Positions 3,124 through 17,512 of a DNA stretch of 51,436 bases are shown here, piece after piece. Location of the stretch: contig JAFZTZ010000032.1 of the NCBI GenBank assembly GCA_017618595.1, positions 1-51,436 of the forward strand, written 5' to 3'. How positions within the stretch are numbered: the first letter of the stretch is position 1; every line of letters starts with the position of its first letter. The notes below the pieces were generated by a model, which was not told the origin of the DNA, did not search any database, and saw only the letters and a program-made list of their open reading frames with translations. The translations under genes and the position numbers were made by a program. The DNA is from Alphaproteobacteria bacterium. Lineage in GTDB: Bacteria > Pseudomonadota > Alphaproteobacteria > Rs-D84.

Positions 3124-4008
3124 ATGTCAAAATTTGGAATGGGACGGAATTTAAGCGATTTGCAAAATGAAATTGGTGTTGCGCCAGATATTTCTATTTT
3201 ATCCGGCACCGAACGGGTTGTTGTGCGTCAAATACCGCTTGTTCAAATTGGAATTAACCCGGATCAGCCGCGTAAAACATTTAATACCGCAGAATTGGAA
3301 GATTTGGCGGCATCCATTCGTGAAAAGGGTGTGTTAACACCAATTATGTTGCGTCCGGTCAAGGGCAGGGCACATGCCTATGAAATTGTTGCGGGCGAAC
3401 GCAGATATCGCGCAAGTAAGATGGCTGGATTAACTGAAATACCGGCGTTTATTAAGAATTTAGCGGATGAAAATGCAATGGAAATTGCGTTAATAGAAAA
3501 TGTTCAACGCGAAAATCTTAACCCGATTGAAGAGGCCGCCGGTTATGCAAATTTGATGAACAAATGCAAATATACGTTGGAAGATGTATCGCGGTTAATT
3601 GGCAAATCAGAAAGTTATATTAGAAATGCGATTCGTTTGAATGGATTGCCGGCATCTGTTAAGAAAATGGTAGAGCAGGGCGAAATATCTGCTTCACACG
3701 CGCGTACCATCGCGGTTGCCGAAAATCCGGAAGAATTGGCCCAGGAAATTATATCCAAGAAAATGACCGTTGCTGATACAGAACAACGCATGAAAAGGGT
3801 TGCGCGTTCCACGGGCACCCGTAAATTCAATGACAAAACAATGGATGTTAAGGTTGTTCGTGATTTAACAAACCGTGTGGCACGTGTGTTGGATGCCAAG
3901 GTTAAAATAACAGAACGTCGTGGTGGTGCGGGTGTGATAACAATAACATTTAACACGCGCAATCAGTTAAACGAAATTATTAACAAAATTGCCGGCAAAA
4001 ACGAATAA
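3124..4008 (+). CDS. parB: Chromosome partitioning protein ParB/Spo0J
   Basis: ParB-box motif IVAGERRYRAS plus an HTH region. Only 2 nt separate it from parA. 294 aa. Confidence 0.95.
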   Translation: MSKFGMGRNLSDLQNEIGVAPDISILSGTERVVVRQIPLVQIGINPDQPRKTFNTAELEDLAASIREKGVLTPIMLRPVKGRAHAYEIVAGERRYRASKMAGLTEIPAFIKNLADENAMEIALIENVQRENLNPIEEAAGYANLMNKCKYTLEDVSRLIGKSESYIRNAIRLNGLPASVKKMVEQGEISASHARTIAVAENPEELAQEIISKKMTVADTEQRMKRVARSTGTRKFNDKTMDVKVVRDLTNRVARVLDAKVKITERRGGAGVITITFNTRNQLNEIINKIAGKNE

Positions 4009-4101
4009 AATTATTAAAAAGACCGGGAAATTTGACACAAAGGTTAAAATACTTTGTTAAATAAAAAATCCCGGCCTTTTTGCAAAAACACCGGAAATAT
4101 T

Positions 4102-4716
4102 ATGGATCAAAAGAAAATAATTTTGACATACGATTCCATTGCAAATGAATATGATAAATTATATGCCAAACCATCGTGTCATATTAAAGAGTTGTTGAAT
4201 TACATTAGTAAAGATTCGGTTGTCCTTGATTTAGGGTGTGGTGCCGGCAATAATGCAACCTATTTATCTAAAATGGGGTATAATGTGACCGGAATGGACC
4301 TGTCTGATAATATGATTACCATCGCCAAAAACAAAAAATCTGATGCGAAATTTATTAAAGGCGATGTACGCAAGTTGAATTTTAAAAATGATTCGTGTGA
4401 TTCTATAATATCGTCTTATATATTTTGCCATTTATCAAAAACAGATGTTGAGAAGTGTTTGGCGCGATTCCATGATATTTTAAGACCTGGTGGGATGTTA
4501 TTTATAGAGTCATTTACCGGAAATCTTGGTGAAATAACAATACCAGAGCCAATGAACAATGCATTAACAATAGATTTTAACATAATGGCACAAAATGATA
4601 TAGAATTATTACTGGCCGCGAATAATTTTAAGATAATAAAGTTCTGGATTCATGATGATACAGAATTTGGGCTGACGGGTATTCAAGACACATGTATTAT
4701 TGCAAAAAAAATATAA
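4102..4716 (+). CDS. Class I SAM-dependent methyltransferase
   Basis: Motif I VLDLGCGAGNN and the sequence LRPGGMLFI. I chose the ATG at 4102 (MDQKKIIL...) over the upstream TTG at 4054. Confidence 0.75.
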   Translation: MDQKKIILTYDSIANEYDKLYAKPSCHIKELLNYISKDSVVLDLGCGAGNNATYLSKMGYNVTGMDLSDNMITIAKNKKSDAKFIKGDVRKLNFKNDSCDSIISSYIFCHLSKTDVEKCLARFHDILRPGGMLFIESFTGNLGEITIPEPMNNALTIDFNIMAQNDIELLLAANNFKIIKFWIHDDTEFGLTGIQDTCIIAKKI

Positions 4717-13582: not shown

Positions 13583-13607
13583 TCCCTTAACATCCACCAA
13601 AAAATAA
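13583..13607 (+). repeat. 25-bp direct repeat, copy 2 (orphan copy of the tRNA-Val 3' end)
   Basis: TCCCTTAACATCCACCAAAAAATAA. The upstream sequence does not fold as a tRNA, so only the 3' terminal segment is duplicated. Confidence 0.9.
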
Positions 13608-13633
13608 AAAACACACCAAATGGTGTGTTTTTT
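13601..13633. terminator. Bidirectional intrinsic terminator
   Basis: Hairpin ACACACCA-aa-TGGTGTGT flanked by an A-run and a T-run. It lies just 3' of the minus-strand gene ending at 13639. Confidence 0.7.
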
Positions 13634-13638
13634 ATTGC

Positions 13639-14703
13639 TTATCTGCTTTTTGGTTTTATGCCGTATGCAACACCAATTTCACCGTACGGTGTCCATTTGT
13701 CATAGTGCTGATATAACGGGCTTTCTGGATCGGTTAGATACAGCGGATTATGTTTCGTTGCGCCAATTGCACAGTATGCACCAACCTTGGTAAAGAAAAT
13801 CGCAACATTTGCACCGGCAATACCATCATCTTGTTCTTTAAATGCGTTTACCGCAATGGATGCCTGGTCGCCTTGAAATGTATGGCGGTATGTCCCGTGT
13901 AATGCGTTCCGTTCCCCAAGGTTTATTGCCTGTAATAAAATGGCATTGTGTGGTGTTGTGTACATAAATTGTAGGTTGCCAAATGTTTCTTTGTTATTAG
14001 TTGCCATAACACCACCAAATTGCACATTTTCAAATCGTTCTTGGACACATAATACAACATATCCGTGCCCAGTAAATTGGAACCCAGGCGAGTTTTCCAT
14101 ATATCCCAATGAAATTGTGTGCTCGTCGTTTTGGAACGTTCCAATTGCCGCGCGCGGAAAGTAATAACCCGAATTCATATACAGGGCATTTATAAAGAAC
14201 GTGCTAATTGGCATATCTTTGGAAAACTTGGCGGAATAATTCAGCGGTGAAAAGTTGCCAACCTTGATATTAAATTCACCAACACGTGTCCACAATTCCA
14301 TTGTCATATACATATCGTGGGTTAATGGGGTCATGGATGTTGTTGTGTAATTTTGAATCATTTGTGTTGTGGTGAACCGAACCGTAAATTTATCATGGAA
14401 TCGTACGAACGGACTAACCACCACCAATGGCGAAAATACGGTGCGCACTTTATCGGTGGTCGCATGTGTAAAAGATTCTAATTCGATATACAGTATGTCT
14501 TGGGCGTGTCCAAATTTAACCGCGGGATTTTTTGGTTTGGGTTTTGGGGTCAAACTGATAGGGTTCTGATGAGTCAAAGTGTTCCCGATGGGAATAGAAT
14601 CATTTTGCGATTGCCCAATTATGTGTCCACCCATGAACAAAGATAACAAACATGTGATTAAATATTTTTTATGCGCAATTAAAAATCGGTAACTTCTGTT
14701 CAT
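13639..14703 (-). CDS. Hypothetical secreted beta-rich protein, possibly an outer-membrane beta-barrel
   Basis: 354 aa. N-terminal hydrophobic signal LITCLLSLFMGG and a PKPKPKNP linker. Long stretches of alternating hydrophobic/polar residues are rich in G/Y/F/N/T. There is no C-terminal aromatic residue, so the beta-barrel call is tentative. Confidence 0.4.
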   Translation of the reverse strand: MNRSYRFLIAHKKYLITCLLSLFMGGHIIGQSQNDSIPIGNTLTHQNPISLTPKPKPKNPAVKFGHAQDILYIELESFTHATTDKVRTVFSPLVVVSPFVRFHDKFTVRFTTTQMIQNYTTTSMTPLTHDMYMTMELWTRVGEFNIKVGNFSPLNYSAKFSKDMPISTFFINALYMNSGYYFPRAAIGTFQNDEHTISLGYMENSPGFQFTGHGYVVLCVQERFENVQFGGVMATNNKETFGNLQFMYTTPHNAILLQAINLGERNALHGTYRHTFQGDQASIAVNAFKEQDDGIAGANVAIFFTKVGAYCAIGATKHNPLYLTDPESPLYQHYDKWTPYGEIGVAYGIKPKSR

Positions 14704-14783
14704 AATGCATAAACATAATACACATAATTTAATTTGTCAAATGCAAGCATAAATTTTTACTTAAAAATAATTGTTTTTTGTGT

Positions 14784-14812
14784 TTGTAAAGGGTTGATAT
14801 TTATGATATAAT
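14784..14812 (+). promoter_or_regulatory. Sigma70-type promoter candidate for the Cys-rich protein gene
   Basis: TTGTAA (14784-14789), a 17-bp spacer, then TATAAT (14807-14812) with an upstream TGa. Confidence 0.45.
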
Positions 14813-14847
14813 AATACAGACAAAGAAACAAAAAGGATGGGAGTATC

Positions 14848-16695
14848 ATGAACAAAATAGCAAAAGTTTTTGCGGTTTTCTCAGCTGTTGCCGGTATGTG
14901 TGTAATACCTGCGGTTGCTGATAATGTGCCCTTTATTGGAGTGCCACCTATTGGAGCGGCACCTGGTGTTATACCTGCTGCTGTTACCGCGGCATCTGGT
15001 GTTATACCTGCTGCTGTTACCACGGCACCTGGTGTTATGCGTGCTGCTGTTACCACGGCACCTGGTGTTATACCTGCTGCTGTTACTGCGGCTGCCACTA
15101 CGTTCAGCGGGTCAAATGCCACCAGCGGGTCAGGCGGTTGTAATTGGGTGGACTGGAAACGTGGTACGCGTGATGCAGACCGTGATGATTACCTGTGGCG
15201 TAATGCGCGCGAATACAATGATGCCGCGGTAAGAGATGGTACGGCCAAGGCCGCGGTTTGTGGTGGCGTACAGTCTGGTACTTGTTGGAGTGGGGCTATT
15301 ATAAGTGCGCCAGCCGAACATGTTTTCAAAGGACAAGTGATTCCATATGCACAACAGTACAAATGTCGTGCGGGGGGACGGCTTAATCACAGATGGGAAC
15401 CAATTAACGAGGCCAATGCGTGCCCTGCATTTAGGTTTGAAGGTGCCAATGTTACATTGCACAAAGGGGAAACATACCCAAACCAAAGTGGTGTGACAAT
15501 GACCAATGAAGAATGCAAGAAAATTACAGGTGAAACATTGGATCCACATGGTGTCAAATATATCGTTAAATGTAATGATAATTGGCAATTACAATGTATT
15601 TTAAGAGATTGCAGTAGTGGTTATACCCCACAAAACAACAGATGTGTCCAGGGTGGCGGCAATGGCGGCGGTCGCCAGTGCGATATATTGCTTGATGGTC
15701 AGGCCATCATATTAAATGTAGGGCAAGAACACAGCGTAGCCCTTGATGCACATCAATGTCGGAGAGCGCGCAGTAGTTTAAGCGCAACCACAAATGTGGA
15801 AGGTGGCGGCGCATACGATGACAATGCGGTATACCATTTATACTGTGCACAGACACAGGTATGCAGAAAAGTTGGTTGCAAAAGCGGTTATCATGATCAA
15901 AATGGCACATGTGTCCGTGGCGGCGGTGGCCAATCATGCCGTGAACGTCGTGCTGGTATGAGTGAAGAAGCCAAAGCGTGCTGTGATACTGGCAGTGCAG
16001 CAACATGGGATACGCCAGTCAGAGGTAAATGTACATGCGTAGATACGAATACTCATTTTGAAATCGTAAGCGGTCGTGGTCAATGTGTACCGAATGGTGT
16101 TATAACAACACAATGTCCGCCAGACGCGGTCCCAAGTGCAGATAATACAACATGTATATGTACGGACCAGACCAAAACATATGATCCGAACACCAGACAA
16201 TGTGTTGCAAGATCTACACATACATGTCCGGCGCATATGGCGTGGAGTGATTCATCAAATCAATGTGAATGTGTTGAACAATATCAACGCAAAGAAGGTG
16301 ATACATGCGTTTGCACAGTTCCAAATGCAGCAAATGATGCGAACGGTATTTGCAAATGTACCGAAAAAGACCATATCGTTAAAGACGGCAAATGCGAATT
16401 TGATGAGTCTGTGTTGCTTAGAATCCGTGGTGAAATCAGCGCTACATTTACCCAGTTGAATTCACATATCGGTGGTTTGGAACAGTCCGTATGGAAAGAC
16501 ACCGAAGGGAACTTTAATACCGCACGTCTTGCATCAGATAGTATCGCGGGTGTTGTTCTTGGAACGGCGGGCGGTCTTATCACGGCCAAGGTTGTTAAAA
16601 AGAACCAATTGAAACAGGGTTTCGAAGATATCAAATGTTCAATTGGTGGCCAAAATGTTGCAAGTTATGGTGACGATTTCAACGTCGGCATGTAA
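14848..16695 (+). CDS. Cysteine-rich repeat surface protein with signal peptide, Pro/Ala/Val tandem repeats, Cys-rich modules and a C-terminal hydrophobic segment
   Basis: 615 aa. Signal peptide MNKIAKVFAVFSAVAGMCVIPAVA. Four copies of the 11-aa unit PGVIPAAVTAA. Several dozen Cys by eye, in CxC/CxxxxC modules (TCICTDQTKTYDPNTRQCV, QCECVEQYQRKEGDTCVCT, GICKCTEKDHIVKDGKCEF). A duplicated module reads DCSSGYTPQNNRCVQGGG / GCKSGYHDQNGTCVRGGG. The C-terminal hydrophobic stretch is IAGVVLGTAGGLITAKVV. Confidence 0.7.
   Translation: MNKIAKVFAVFSAVAGMCVIPAVADNVPFIGVPPIGAAPGVIPAAVTAASGVIPAAVTTAPGVMRAAVTTAPGVIPAAVTAAATTFSGSNATSGSGGCNWVDWKRGTRDADRDDYLWRNAREYNDAAVRDGTAKAAVCGGVQSGTCWSGAIISAPAEHVFKGQVIPYAQQYKCRAGGRLNHRWEPINEANACPAFRFEGANVTLHKGETYPNQSGVTMTNEECKKITGETLDPHGVKYIVKCNDNWQLQCILRDCSSGYTPQNNRCVQGGGNGGGRQCDILLDGQAIILNVGQEHSVALDAHQCRRARSSLSATTNVEGGGAYDDNAVYHLYCAQTQVCRKVGCKSGYHDQNGTCVRGGGGQSCRERRAGMSEEAKACCDTGSAATWDTPVRGKCTCVDTNTHFEIVSGRGQCVPNGVITTQCPPDAVPSADNTTCICTDQTKTYDPNTRQCVARSTHTCPAHMAWSDSSNQCECVEQYQRKEGDTCVCTVPNAANDANGICKCTEKDHIVKDGKCEFDESVLLRIRGEISATFTQLNSHIGGLEQSVWKDTEGNFNTARLASDSIAGVVLGTAGGLITAKVVKKNQLKQGFEDIKCSIGGQNVASYGDDFNVGM
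14962..15093 (+). repeat. In-frame tandem repeat, 4 x 33 bp
   Basis: The unit CCTGGTGTTATACCTGCTGCTGTTACCGCGGCA starts at 14962, 14995, 15028 and 15061, with 1-4 substitutions per copy. Confidence 0.95.
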
Positions 16696-16712
16696 TAGAT
16701 GGTTGGTTTATG

Positions 16713-16744
16713 AAAAACGGTCGCAAATCTGCGACCGTTTTTTC
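16713..16744. terminator. Bidirectional intrinsic terminator
   Basis: Hairpin CGGTCGCA-aatc-TGCGACCG flanked by AAAAA and TTTTTT, between convergent genes. Confidence 0.8.
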
Positions 16745-16756
16745 ATGTAGAATAAT

Positions 16757-17512
16757 TTATTTGGAACTGTGGTGATTATGTAAATTCCAAAAATATGCGT
16801 TTTGAATATATTGCACCGCCCGTACAATATCAAATTGTTTGGTGTATGGGTCTTTTAAGTTTCCTTCGGCATCTATCCACGTCTTGTAATCATTTGGCAA
16901 CTGTGCGCTGATATTTTTAAGGTTATCGGCGATGTTTTCTGGCGACAGTCCCCCGCTGTATCCCATTTTATGATTTTCCATAACTGGTGCATGCCATTCA
17001 TCTGGGCTTTTACCGCAACCACCTGATTCATCATATAATAACGAGAAAGGAACACCGGTTTTGTTCAATGCGCGCGCACGATTTTTTTGCTTTGTGGTGT
17101 ATTGAAATATAAATTCTATATCTGGATATGCACGAATAATATCCGCAACCTTGTGCGCATAAAAATGGTATTTTTCGTCCCCGCCATTTATATTTATTTG
17201 GACACGACCAATCATCGATTTGCCGTTATTACGCTTTATTTTAAGAATATCGTTAATTTCTGCCGGAATTTTGCCATGGGCTAACATCGTCCGCCATTGA
17301 GAATTTACATGCATGGCAAGATTTACATCGTTATTCATGCATTGTTGCATCAATTCCCAAAACCATTCATATCGTGGCATATGTGACGAAAATTTTGATG
17401 GGTGCGCCTGAATAGCAAATTCGGCCATTGGCCAACGTTTACCAACGGCGACAATATCGTCGATTGAATTGTATTCACGCATATCACTACAGGTTATTTT
17501 TTCCAGTATCAT
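16757..17512 (-). CDS. TIM-barrel protein resembling phosphoribosylanthranilate isomerase (TrpF-like); function unknown
   Basis: 251 aa. LLYDESGGCGKSPDEW, GYSGGLSPENI and WIDAEGNLKD...FDIVRAVQYIQ line up with the TrpF motifs D-x-GG(S/T)G-x-x-FDW, LAGGL-x-x-(E/D)N and G-x-D-x-x-S-x-x-E...KD. RBS AGGTG. It starts 24 nt after the infB stop. Confidence 0.45.
   Translation of the reverse strand: MILEKITCSDMREYNSIDDIVAVGKRWPMAEFAIQAHPSKFSSHMPRYEWFWELMQQCMNNDVNLAMHVNSQWRTMLAHGKIPAEINDILKIKRNNGKSMIGRVQININGGDEKYHFYAHKVADIIRAYPDIEFIFQYTTKQKNRARALNKTGVPFSLLYDESGGCGKSPDEWHAPVMENHKMGYSGGLSPENIADNLKNISAQLPNDYKTWIDAEGNLKDPYTKQFDIVRAVQYIQNAYFWNLHNHHSSK

Follow-up and report, generated by a model that had tools for sequence, protein, structure and literature searches.

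A candidate membrane-tethered, cysteine-rich recognition protein with a strain-specific head in an Rs-D84 alphaproteobacterium

The VSPs and high-cysteine membrane proteins of Giardia form a diverse set in which a signal peptide and a variable Cys-rich ectodomain are followed by a near-invariant C-terminal hydrophobic region and a Cys-bearing tail. In YadA-like trimeric autotransporters, a signal peptide is followed by a variable head, a helical stalk and a conserved, Gly-rich C-terminal anchor of about 70 aa. The glycine-zipper outer-membrane lipoproteins (SlyB/Pcp, YiaD and the Rickettsia 17-kDa antigen) are Sec-exported and contain a weakly hydrophobic GxxxGxxxG segment, which in YiaD is combined with an OmpA-like domain. 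Chlamydial OmcB and OmcA are exported Cys-rich envelope proteins encoded in a reduced genome, with possible disulfide cross-links. Elongated chains of disulfide-stapled beta-hairpins are found in TNFR, EGF-like, furin-like/EGFR Cys-rich and fibronectin type I domains. The protein described here, P0001, resembles each of these systems in the features named: its family is diverse like the Giardia one, a subfamily pairs the glycine zipper with an OmpA domain as YiaD does, and its C-x-C-x(8-10)-G-x(1-2)-C spacing recalls the last hairpin of the EGF domain.

P0001 is encoded in a window of 51,436 nucleotides, by which we mean the whole stretch of DNA analysed, from a gut alphaproteobacterium (Candidatus Enterousia) in the order Rs-D84. 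Enterousia and related bacteria are widespread in the gut; their genomes are smaller than 1 Mb, and they have no respiration and few transporters (PMC12306168).

Gene, protein layout and predicted fold

The gene lies in a pnp-ybaB/infB context. A first-pass annotation had described a 615-aa ORF with a signal peptide, PGVIPAAVTAA repeats, Gly runs, a high Cys density and a hydrophobic C-terminal segment, and all of these were verified. The features are as follows.

13639..14703, minus strand: orphan neighbour of 354 aa, divergent, inside the cassette 13636-15677; no family match
14784..14812, plus strand: sigma-70-like promoter match, TTGTAA-17-(TG)TATAAT, about 35 nt 5' of the ATG; a consensus match only
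14834..14843, plus strand: purine-rich ribosome-binding region AGGATGGGAG, 4 nt 5' of the ATG, read from the sequence
14848..16695, plus strand: coding sequence of P0001 (615 aa, Cys-rich) with its stop codon, from the ORF list
14848..14919, plus strand: signal peptide, residues 1-24, MNKIAKVFAVFSAVAGMCVIPAVA/D, predicted cleavage AVA/D by the heuristic (-3,-1) rule
14920..15138, plus strand: strain-specific N-terminal extension rich in Pro, Ala, Val and Thr, residues 25-97, pLDDT <45
14956-15092, plus strand: in-frame tandem repeat encoding PGVIPAAVTAA, period 33 nt, 4.2 copies, 91% matches
15139..15417, plus strand: head subdomain D1a, residues 98-190, motifs DDYLW, AEHVFKG, YKC and RWEP, pLDDT 82-94
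15421..15651, plus strand: 6-Cys beta module, copy 1, residues 192-268, from the AlphaFold2 model and self-alignment
15652..15672, plus strand: Gly linker GGGNGGG, residues 269-275, with the right-hand breakpoint of the cassette just 3' of it, at about 15677
15673..15918, plus strand: 6-Cys beta module, copy 2, residues 276-357, from the AlphaFold2 model and self-alignment
15934..16092, plus strand: helix-plus-hairpin CC-pair module, residues 363-415, SCRERRAG...ACCDTG...GKCTCVD..HFEIV..GQCV, pLDDT 81-95
16108..16401, plus strand: beta-hairpin ladder stapled by disulfides, residues 421-518, five CxC motifs of the type C-x-C-x(8-16)-C
16402..16482, plus strand: helical stalk, residues 519-545, AlphaFold2 helix 520-542, pLDDT 80-93 over most of it
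16483..16692, plus strand: almost invariant C-terminal module, residues 546-615, SVWKD.EGNFNTARLASD, Gly-zipper segment, KKNQ, GFEDIKCSIGGQ..YGDDFNVG
16540..16596, plus strand: hydrophobic glycine-zipper segment SIAGVVLGTAGGLITAKVV, residues 565-583, G568xxxG572xxxG576 invariant
16636..16638, plus strand: codon of the lone Cys597 in the tail, a column invariant in 120 sequences
16709..16746, no strand assigned: bidirectional intrinsic terminator (hairpin 16713-16742, then a U run), -22.1 kcal/mol, z -5.2

The reading frame has a low dN/dS (estimates of 0.16-0.25 and, for the CDS against orthologues, 0.22-0.31) and all ectodomain Cys are conserved, so the gene is real and translated in the annotated frame, the Cys-rich region included, as the first-pass annotation required. 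That annotation also gave the gene its own promoter and terminator. The terminator stands, and it sits between two convergent genes, that of P0001 and a trpF-like gene. The promoter does not go beyond a consensus match, since promoter-type matches near P0001 are as numerous in the region as expected by chance. No convincing inverted repeats, as an invertible-promoter switch would show, were found around the intergenic stretch 14704-14847.

The n/h/c layout of the signal peptide is the same throughout the family. The tandem repeat and the N-terminal extension are missing in all three orthologues (P0002-P0004). The 33-nt repeat unit resembles the 3' end of the signal-peptide DNA at 14900-14917 (repeat family D2). 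In the head, 76 of 350 family members carry a GHVFKG-type motif, with at most three copies. A 15-nt piece of linker DNA at 15663-15677 recurs at 15918-15932 (repeat family D14), and a second Gly run covers residues 358-362.

The duplication of a larger module, claimed at first pass, was confirmed. Residues 192-268 and 278-357 align with a Smith-Waterman score of 59; shuffled sequences score 25 +/- 4.4, and none of 2000 reached 59. Only the final 16 residues are in the significant local alignment, and it is the four-strand pattern common to both copies in the AlphaFold model that supports duplication of the whole module. The strings quoted at first pass, TCICTDQTKTYDPNTRQCV, QCECVEQYQ...GKCEF and IAGVVLGTAGGLITAKVV, were verified in P0001. 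The CC-pair module that follows is the most conserved part of the ectodomain across the family. A second Cys-rich protein encoded in this genome, C93:4182-6221, shares it (44% identity over 41 aa). In the region equivalent to the hairpin ladder, some relatives have a match to Pfam DUF5874. For the stalk, the first-pass description of a coiled segment before the hydrophobic stretch agrees with a predicted helix. A coiled coil is not established because the stalk, which is variable in sequence, is only moderately amphipathic across the family.

Cysteine makes up 5.9% of P0001 (36 residues) compared to a genome median of 1.0%. Thirty-four of these residues are in the mature ectodomain, one is in the signal peptide and one is in the tail. 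None of the 34 ectodomain Cys varies among four orthologues that are 58-78% identical. In 194 of 208 family members the Cys count of the predicted mature ectodomain is even, and exactly one Cys is present in the C-terminal module of all 208. The even numbers across the family indicate that the ectodomain Cys are paired, which would give 17 disulfides in P0001. Searches of the 85%-complete genome for DsbB and VKOR were negative, which counts against a disulfide-stapled protein.

AlphaFold2 gave a confident model with 120 sequences; a first, poor model with 4 sequences had a pLDDT of 55. In the confident model, residues 100-545 reach pLDDT 85-95 and form beta-hairpin modules followed by the stalk helix. 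Searches of P0001 against Pfam (E up to 1), NCBIfam and PDB sequences gave no family match, and its neighbours gave nothing relevant. The EGF family (PF00008 and relatives) was found neither in P0001 with Pfam at E up to 1 nor in the Pfam annotation of about 240 relatives, and the furin-like and Ephrin_rec_like models (PF00757; GCC2_GCC3 PF07699) matched neither P0001 nor its relatives. Pfam PF03302, the Giardia VSP model, and the Chlam_OMP6 HMM for chlamydial OmcB did not match P0001, and the PROSITE EGF patterns had no match by eye. Sequence-profile searches of the PDB with the family alignments gave nothing, and a MIC60 match at E 3.1 was noise.

Foldseek searches of the PDB with the confident model returned only weak matches (E of at least 0.1) to generic disulfide-hairpin ladders. 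The best targets were TNFR1, the EGF repeats of NELL2, the Cys-rich region of EGFR, fibronectin FnI and the Entamoeba Gal/GalNAc lectin. TM-scores were at most 0.38 when normalised by the target, over short stretches, and below 0.15 when normalised by the query. The first, poor model had matched NELL2 at E 0.017. An EGF fold was rejected, since the best EGF-containing matches (NELL2, HER4/EGFR) had E 0.017-3.5 and TM of at most 0.13. R-spondin Fu1-Fu2 and the EGFR Cys-rich region reached only E 1.5-2.1. Among viral structures, an adenovirus fibre match at E 3e-4 had a TM of 0.07 and an rmsd of 47 Å and was set aside as a generic elongated repeat.

The first-pass annotation had likened the Cys-rich region to EGF, furin-type, GCC2_GCC3 and VSP modules. 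With no HMM match, no CxxC motif anywhere in P0001 and no significant fold match for the confident model, membership in these families does not hold. A further suggestion was that such modules had been acquired horizontally, from the host or a gut protist, as a eukaryote-derived mimic. The best fold matches are eukaryotic Cys-rich ladders, yet they are non-significant and come with the low TM-scores above, and neither HMMs, PDB sequences nor CxxC motifs link P0001 to such proteins. GC3 is typical of the genome (0.34 vs 0.38 +/- 0.05), and the family has been inherited throughout a bacterial family, with members in 278 of the 328 genomes of the order. Horizontal acquisition is not upheld by these data, and we give the mimic almost no credence. 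The codon usage of P0001 falls at the genome's 4th percentile, which its unusual amino-acid composition may explain.

The C-terminal module and its family

A profile search recovered about 950 clusters (at 50% identity) related to P0001, nearly all of them matched via the last ~90 residues, and residues 516-615 alone were matched by 800 proteins. All belong to one family of the order Rs-D84, comprising Candidatus Enterousia and sister genera, with 1-10 copies in each genome that has them; P0001's own genome holds a single copy, outside any operon that contains further Cys-rich genes. Paralogues are often arranged as divergent pairs. Homologues are restricted to gut-associated, tiny-genome relatives and none carries an enzymatic annotation, so the protein also passed the taxonomic check proposed at first pass.

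The module follows the pattern W-x(4,5)-G-x-F-N-x2-R-L-x-S-D ... GxxxGxxxG ... KK-x-Q ... G-F-E-D-I-x-C-x-I-G-G-Q ... F-x-V-G at the extreme C-terminus. This pattern together with a signal peptide defines the family, and P0001 has both. Module columns are 90-100% conserved, compared to about 30% identity among ectodomains. The module had no match in Pfam, NCBIfam or PDB sequences, and the Pfam hits of 30 family C-termini, searched to an E of 10, were all noise. At the same threshold, none of the 30 matched the Gly-zipper families PF05433, PF13488, PF13441 and PF13436. The family defined by this module is previously undescribed.

Within the module, all of 120 sequences keep G568, G572 and G576. 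The 19-residue zipper has an Asp before it and KKNQ after it, and about 30 conserved residues lie downstream of KKNQ. A (G/A/S)xxxGxxxG motif in a weakly hydrophobic segment, the mark of glycine zippers, is present in P0001. The additive Hessa dG of the segment is +4.3 kcal/mol (family mean 3.8 +/- 0.8), which falls in the gap between the clear membrane proteins of this genome (at most +1) and its soluble proteins (above 5) and makes it weak as a stop-transfer helix. Three further observations count against a membrane tether. In AlphaFold2, residues 558-592 have pLDDT below 50 and form no helix. The diverged modules of sister genera keep the same layout, including AxxxGxxxG, but their hydrophobic segment is even weaker and the basic cluster has decayed. 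Lastly, C93:4182-6221 has a similar zipper between its signal peptide and a 44-Cys domain, a position in which it cannot be an inner-membrane span.

With its polar motif, hydrophobic segment and basic cluster, and its extreme conservation on diverse cargo, the module looks like a cleaved sorting or secretion signal of the type of PEP-CTERM/exosortase, GlyGly-CTERM/rhombosortase or the T9SS CTD. We consider this very unlikely. The ~30 residues after the basic cluster are conserved, and we know of no sorting signal with conserved residues there. Moreover, no NCBIfam or Pfam signal model (PEP-CTERM, GlyGly-CTERM, MYXO-CTERM, LPXTG, T9SS CTD) matches, a search of the 85%-complete genome gave no rhomboid, and the cargo would be only 1-10 proteins per genome.

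Among domains of known function, just one gives a clue to location, and it occurs in a subset of the family. PF00691 (OmpA) matches the member P0185 at E 2.6e-9, above the curated cut-off, and about 11 of 350 members are Cys-poor relatives of P0185. An OmpA peptidoglycan-binding domain in place of the Cys-rich part would put everything N-terminal of the module in the periplasm. The diderm envelope markers BamA and LptD were found in P0001's own genome and in a syntenic relative, respectively.

Ectodomain evolution and location in the envelope

Compared to L014, dN is 0.004-0.014 for the flanking genes, 0.012 for the module and 0.10-0.20 for the ectodomain, whose dS is also raised (0.45-1.1). 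Evolution of the ectodomain is about 10-30 times faster than that of the housekeeping genes on either side. Compared to the L003 allele, the head is 34% identical, the other ectodomain modules 76-79% and the C-terminal module 96%. Positions 13636-15677 have no DNA match in L003, where the flanks are 90% identical, and they form a strain-variable cassette. We infer from these alignments that heads and modules are swapped between strains at the Gly linkers, by recombination at Gly-linker DNA.

The cassette also contains the divergent orphan. It has a counterpart with 49% identity in L002 and one with 95% aa identity in L014 (dN/dS 0.06), and it is not at the syntenic locus L003. A search of 41 genomes found it in P0001's own alone, with none in 24 other species of the genus; a role as partner or translocator was rejected on this occurrence, and the orphan is no partner of the family at large. 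The divergent pairing noted at first pass holds as a gene arrangement, but a functional pair is not supported. Other family members do not share conserved neighbours; their loci differ, with a ribosomal-protein context in L004 and L005.

Our preferred reading, held with slightly more confidence than doubt, is that P0001 is a membrane-tethered, probably oligomeric, disulfide-stapled recognition rod with a strain-specific head. The Sec-type signal peptide would export the protein. The ectodomain would then form a rigid rod of small beta modules (head, two 6-Cys modules, CC module and CxC hairpin ladder), with the strain-specific head at its end as the candidate binding part. The GxxxGxxxG segment would hold P0001 in a membrane, inner or outer, spanning it or only dipping into it, and would pack homo-oligomers, while the lone-Cys tail would stay on a conserved, unexposed side. 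Oligomerisation in particular is suggested by the motif alone. The ectodomain probably faces the periplasm; exposure at the surface we consider possible but a good deal less likely. The evolutionary pattern, which is like that of a surface antigen, fits poorly with a periplasmic ectodomain. Fast, mosaic evolution is consistent with an exposed protein.

If the module were anchored in the outer membrane instead, with the ectodomain toward the gut, host or partner cells, P0001 would be a true surface coat or adhesin like the Cys-rich coat of Giardia. The rapid divergence and swapped heads of the ectodomain, the strain-specific in-frame repeat, the 1-10 paralogues per genome, often in divergent pairs, and the architecture of head, stalk and short conserved C-terminal anchor would all suit a coat. 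So would a hydrophobic segment too weak for a classic inner-membrane anchor and an invariant tail, which is expected on a protected, non-exposed side. However, no model for outer-membrane translocation or anchoring matches (YadA_anchor, autotransporter, T9SS CTD), the C-terminal residue is not aromatic, and the members with an OmpA domain imply a periplasmic N-terminal part. A domain with 17 disulfides would also have to pass the outer membrane. We therefore regard a surface coat as doubtful.

A different role for Cys597 would be to bond other Cys-rich envelope proteins, making P0001 part of a disulfide-cross-linked layer like that of chlamydial OmcB/OmcA. The same genome encodes about 20 long exported Cys-rich proteins, in which Pfam gives one subthreshold CarboxypepD_reg match only. 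These Cys-rich families have modules in common. The lone Cys never varies, and it has a parallel in one other protein, where a lone Cys lies beside a similar zipper. A scaffold should be conserved, yet the ectodomain is the fastest-evolving part of P0001, and its single-copy gene is outside operons with Cys-rich genes. This makes a cross-linked layer improbable in our view.

Returning to the tethered rod, a bolder version of it, which we think rather unlikely, is that the module is a new envelope-anchoring device of diderms, either as an oligomeric bundle of zipper helices in the outer membrane or Cys-locked to a conserved partner. It would display swappable, eukaryote-like disulfide-ladder heads at the cell surface, a counterpart of the VSP coat used to hold or evade the cells on which these bacteria depend.

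Comparison with known systems

A family that occurs in about 85% of the genomes of these gut bacteria and pairs a near-frozen tether with a rapidly exchanged head braced by disulfides is a strong candidate for their contact or recognition layer. Since the C-terminal module and most of the ectodomain modules match no described family, they could be defined as new domains, and the C-terminal module offers a sequence handle for cataloguing strain-level variation in metagenomes. P0001 also illustrates that dense Cys spacing alone is insufficient to claim EGF, furin or VSP homology or a horizontally acquired mimic.

The likeness to animal EGF/furin or protist surface repeats is superficial. The eukaryotic ladder modules differ from P0001 in that no Pfam model matches and the confident model finds them at a Foldseek E of 0.1 or worse. 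With the VSPs there is no sequence or HMM relation: P0001 has CxC motifs where VSPs have CxxC, and a tail of ~30 residues of other sequence where VSPs have five (CRGKA). Giardia has about 200 VSP genes, compared to 1-10 family genes here, and we saw no switching mechanism. Because the cell is a diderm bacterium, surface exposure of P0001 is not guaranteed.

YadA-like proteins differ in their anchor. None of 30 family C-termini matched YadA_anchor (PF03895) at E up to 10, and the family ends in VGIQ, VGR or VGM, which are not aromatic. The stalk of P0001 is a single helix of ~23 residues, and its hydrophobic segment is uniformly apolar, not alternating. Compared to the glycine-zipper lipoproteins, P0001 has no HMM match, no lipobox and one zipper in place of a two-helix hairpin; its zipper is C-terminal, with a conserved, beta-like tail carrying a lone Cys behind it. 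To chlamydial OmcB and OmcA there is no homology, and OmcB is conserved whereas the ectodomain of P0001 is hypervariable.

Gene features and ectodomain anatomy

P0001, the 615-aa Cys-rich protein under study, is encoded by an ORF called at 14848..16695 on the + strand. The first-pass annotation had described this ORF with a signal peptide, PGVIPAAVTAA repeats, a high Cys density and a duplicated larger module. The ORF position and the quoted peptide strings were all found exactly in place in the sequence, and these four features also held up (see list). The gene had also been credited with its own promoter and terminator. A terminator is well supported by the hairpin and U run, but the promoter is a consensus match only.

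Features of the P0001 gene and protein
N-terminus, + strand: signal peptide, n/h/c layout of the Sec type, predicted site between AVA and D (heuristic rule)
14956-15092, + strand: PGVIPAAVTAA tandem repeat, 33-nt unit, 4.2 copies, 91% matches (Tandem Repeats Finder)
Residues 98-190: head D1a, motifs DDYLW, AEHVFKG, YKC and RWEP (AlphaFold2)
Residues 192-268 and 278-357: six-Cys beta module, two copies, Gly runs between and after
Residues 363-415: helix-plus-hairpin module with a CC pair (AlphaFold2)
Residues 421-518: ladder of six beta-hairpins with five CxC motifs (AlphaFold2)
Residues 520-542: helix (AlphaFold2)
17 nt past the stop codon: predicted bidirectional terminator, perfect 13-bp hairpin plus U run, -22 kcal/mol, z -5.2

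The three closest orthologues have neither the tandem repeat nor the whole 73-residue Pro/Ala/Val/Thr extension, and their first conserved Cys directly starts the mature protein. Since the DNA of the repeat unit (14966-15082) matches the 3' end of the signal-peptide sequence (CVIPAVA, 14900-14917) at 83% identity, the extension seems to have been duplicated from P0001's own signal-peptide c-region. Every repeat unit contains an A-x-A-like site.

P0001 has 36 Cys (5.9%), where the median across 881 ORFs of its genome is 1.0%. The ectodomain holds 34 of them, all invariant among the orthologues, and the signal peptide and the C-terminal tail hold one each. The number of Cys in the predicted mature ectodomain is even in 194 of 208 family members, and each of the 208 carries a single Cys in its C-terminal module. 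Several of the 14 odd-count members are obvious cleavage-site mispredictions. Such a pattern would be expected if the ectodomains were fully disulfide-paired and the lone tail Cys stood apart.

The AlphaFold2 model, built from a 120-sequence alignment, has a pLDDT of 85-95 over residues 100-545. Its D1a head type is found in 76 of 350 family members. The two six-Cys modules gave a local alignment score of 59, compared with 25 ± 4.4 for shuffled sequences (0/2000 reached 59). The significant part of this alignment is the last 16 residues; both copies also have the same six-Cys spacing and, in the model, the same four-strand pattern. The CC module recurs in C93:4182-6221, another Cys-rich protein that this genome encodes, with 44% identity over 41 aa, and in some relatives the ladder region has a match to Pfam DUF5874. 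Modules are thus common to several Enterousia Cys-rich families.

The family, its C-terminal module and the cell envelope

Only three full-length P0001 homologues (58-72% identity) came out of a word-indexed search of 5.8 billion proteins. When 1.84 billion representatives were searched exhaustively with a profile, 950 clusters matched (896 at E <= 1e-10), almost all of which align via the last ~90 residues of P0001; residues 516-615 used alone as the query found 800 proteins. All members examined share a plan of signal peptide, variable ectodomain, helix and C-terminal module. The ectodomains, usually Cys-rich, have a median Cys content of 5.4% (proteins of median length 530 aa) and are ~30% identical in 120 proteins whose module columns are 90-100% conserved. 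The module consensus at the extreme C-terminus is SVWKDAEGNFNTARLASDSIAGVVLGTAGGLITSxVVKKNQxKxGFEDIxCxIGGQxVAxYGDEFxVG. Diverged modules from sister genera retain W...G.FN..RL..D, (G/A)xxxGxxxG, a basic patch, G[FY]E.[IV].C and [FY]G[DE].F.V.

Among 328 genomes of order Rs-D84, 278 carry the module (1-10 copies per genome). All 278 belong to P0001's own taxonomic family (16 of 30 genera), and none to other families of the order. Searches of Pfam, NCBIfam and PDB sequences with the module gave no match, and no paper in the literature collection searched names Rs-D84 along with cysteine. Members are often arranged as divergently transcribed pairs with their conserved 3' modules ~3 kb apart (for example, G003:C1:181837-184948, G233:C1:329986-333182, G253:C1:156830-159830 and G278:C2:67781-70751). 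In several assemblies (G015, G034, G296, G310), the module lies at contig ends, which suggests that nearly identical copies of the DNA interrupt assembly. Such DNA could support gene conversion.

The related loci come from ruminant gut samples, as part of metagenome-assembled genomes that carry the label Alphaproteobacteria or Candidatus Enterousia. Enterousia (order Rs-D84) have been described as gut bacteria whose genomes are <1 Mb and that lack a TCA cycle and a respiratory chain and encode few standard transporters (PMC12306168). The genome encoding P0001 is 0.94 Mb in 110 contigs, 85% complete and 41% GC. BamA is encoded in this genome, and LptD and LptF/G in a syntenic relative, which makes the cell a diderm with LPS. 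Searches of this 85% complete genome for canonical DsbB, VKOR and rhomboid were negative. The sole candidate oxidoreductase seen (C68, about 3870-4464) is exported, has a glutaredoxin fold with the active-site motif CPHC and carries a membrane segment at its C-terminus.

About 20 long exported proteins with 3.5-7% Cys are spread over many contigs of the genome, including C90:4697-7237, C52:130-3198, C19:8742-11144, C53:3427-6309, C110:24047-26842, C45:2129-4228, C54:1597-3951 and C73:10197-12200. A large paralogous set among them has the signature Y..CMD.FC......RC.CS after a Ser/Thr/Arg-rich region. None of eight tested exceeded a Pfam family cut-off; C85:1-2242 matched CarboxypepD_reg slightly under it (30.8 vs 32.3 bits).

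The C-terminal module could be a single-pass membrane anchor. Its 19-residue apolar segment has Asp before it and KKNQ after it, which follows the positive-inside rule, and a lone Cys lies beyond. The invariant GxxxGxxxG is a motif that goes with tightly packed homo-oligomeric membrane helices. However, the segment is weak for a classic stop-transfer helix: its additive Hessa dG is +4.3 kcal/mol (family mean 3.8 ± 0.8), in the gap between the membrane proteins of the genome (<= +1; 11% of ORFs) and the soluble ones. Sister-genus segments are weaker still, with a decaying basic cluster, and AlphaFold2 gives pLDDT <50 and no helix at residues 558-592. An inner-membrane span is also incompatible with the zipper of C93:4182-6221, whose Cys-rich domain would then be cytoplasmic. 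In this exported protein (679 aa, 47 Cys; also C69:1-1698), the signal peptide is followed by 30 residues that include a lone Cys; next come a zipper resembling that of P0001, a coiled coil and finally a 44-Cys domain, which contains long GGN runs and internal repeats that are nearly identical. We read the C-terminal module as a membrane-associated, probably oligomerising tether that may either span its membrane or dip into it.

A low-Cys subfamily of 330-365 aa (P0185, P0223, P0188, P0234, P0219, P0191, P0175, P0130, P0151 and P0128) combines an OmpA-like peptidoglycan-binding domain, a long helical region and the same C-terminal module. P0185-related low-Cys members make up about 11 of 350, and no copy was found in the genome encoding P0001. 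The OmpA domain of P0185, the only domain in the family whose function is known, scores above the Pfam cut-off and retains both the Asp and the Arg that belong to the binding motif. On this evidence, the region preceding the module is periplasmic. It is reasonably likely that the P0001 ectodomain faces the periplasm; exposure at the cell surface is less likely.

Evolution of the locus

Compared with L014, the contig of the close orthologue P0002, the flanking truB, pnp, infB and nusA have dN 0.004-0.014, dS about 0.3 and dN/dS 0.02-0.05. The values for the P0001 ectodomain are dN 0.10-0.20, dS 0.45-1.1 and dN/dS 0.16-0.25, and the C-terminal module has dN 0.012 and dS 0.165. In the syntenic locus L003, the flanking DNA is 90% identical, and a DNA match to 13636-15677 is absent altogether. 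Protein identity to L003 is 34% for the head, 76-79% for the remaining ectodomain modules and 96% for the C-terminal module. The block 13636-15677 comprises the neighbouring orphan gene and the head-coding 5' 830 nt of the P0001 gene. A tRNA 3' end is duplicated here along with its hairpin, and the left edge of the block adjoins the second copy (13583-13636). The right breakpoint is the first Gly linker, whose 15-nt DNA recurs at the second linker (15918-15932). Mosaic allele exchange appears to have shaped the locus, with the fold held under purifying selection. The rapid change of the head favours a strain-specific role in binding or recognition.

A TrpF-like gene downstream of infB, at 16757-17512 (-), also evolves much faster than its neighbours (77-85% aa identity and dN/dS 0.09-0.22, compared with 98-99% and 0.02-0.03 for infB/nusA).

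The divergent neighbour, a 354-aa orphan, had no match in family-model searches. It is 95% identical in aa in the nearest relative (dN/dS 0.06) and 49% identical in L002, and the related locus L013 has a gene of similar size (361 aa) at the same position, also without a family. The orphan is absent from L003 and from the 24 other same-genus species searched. The divergent pairing is present as first annotated, but the orphan is not a general partner of the P0001 family; it is part of the strain-variable cassette that includes the P0001 head.

The GC content of the P0001 gene is 0.47 (genome 0.42 ± 0.03) but its GC3 is not raised (0.34; genome 0.38 ± 0.05), and therefore the excess GC stems from Gly, Ala and Cys codons. 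Its synonymous codon usage lies at the 4th percentile. Together with the family-wide distribution, these values leave a recent horizontal acquisition unsupported.

Comparison with known Cys-rich folds

The first-pass annotation had likened P0001 to EGF, furin-type and variant-surface (VSP) repeats. P0001 did not match EGF, furin-like, Ephrin_rec_like (GCC2_GCC3) or VSP models, and none of these was among the precomputed Pfam domains listed for ~240 relatives. P0001 contains no CxxC motif. When the confident model was compared with the PDB by Foldseek, the matches were fibronectin type I modules, megalin, the Entamoeba Gal/GalNAc lectin, TNFR1, the Cys-rich regions of EGFR/HER4, and R-spondin, all with E >= 0.1 and target-normalised TM-scores <=0.38 over short stretches only. 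Viral-library matches to adenovirus fibres were not meaningful (TM 0.07). P0001 is thus predicted to work like a disulfide-stapled hairpin ladder, without belonging to any of these families.
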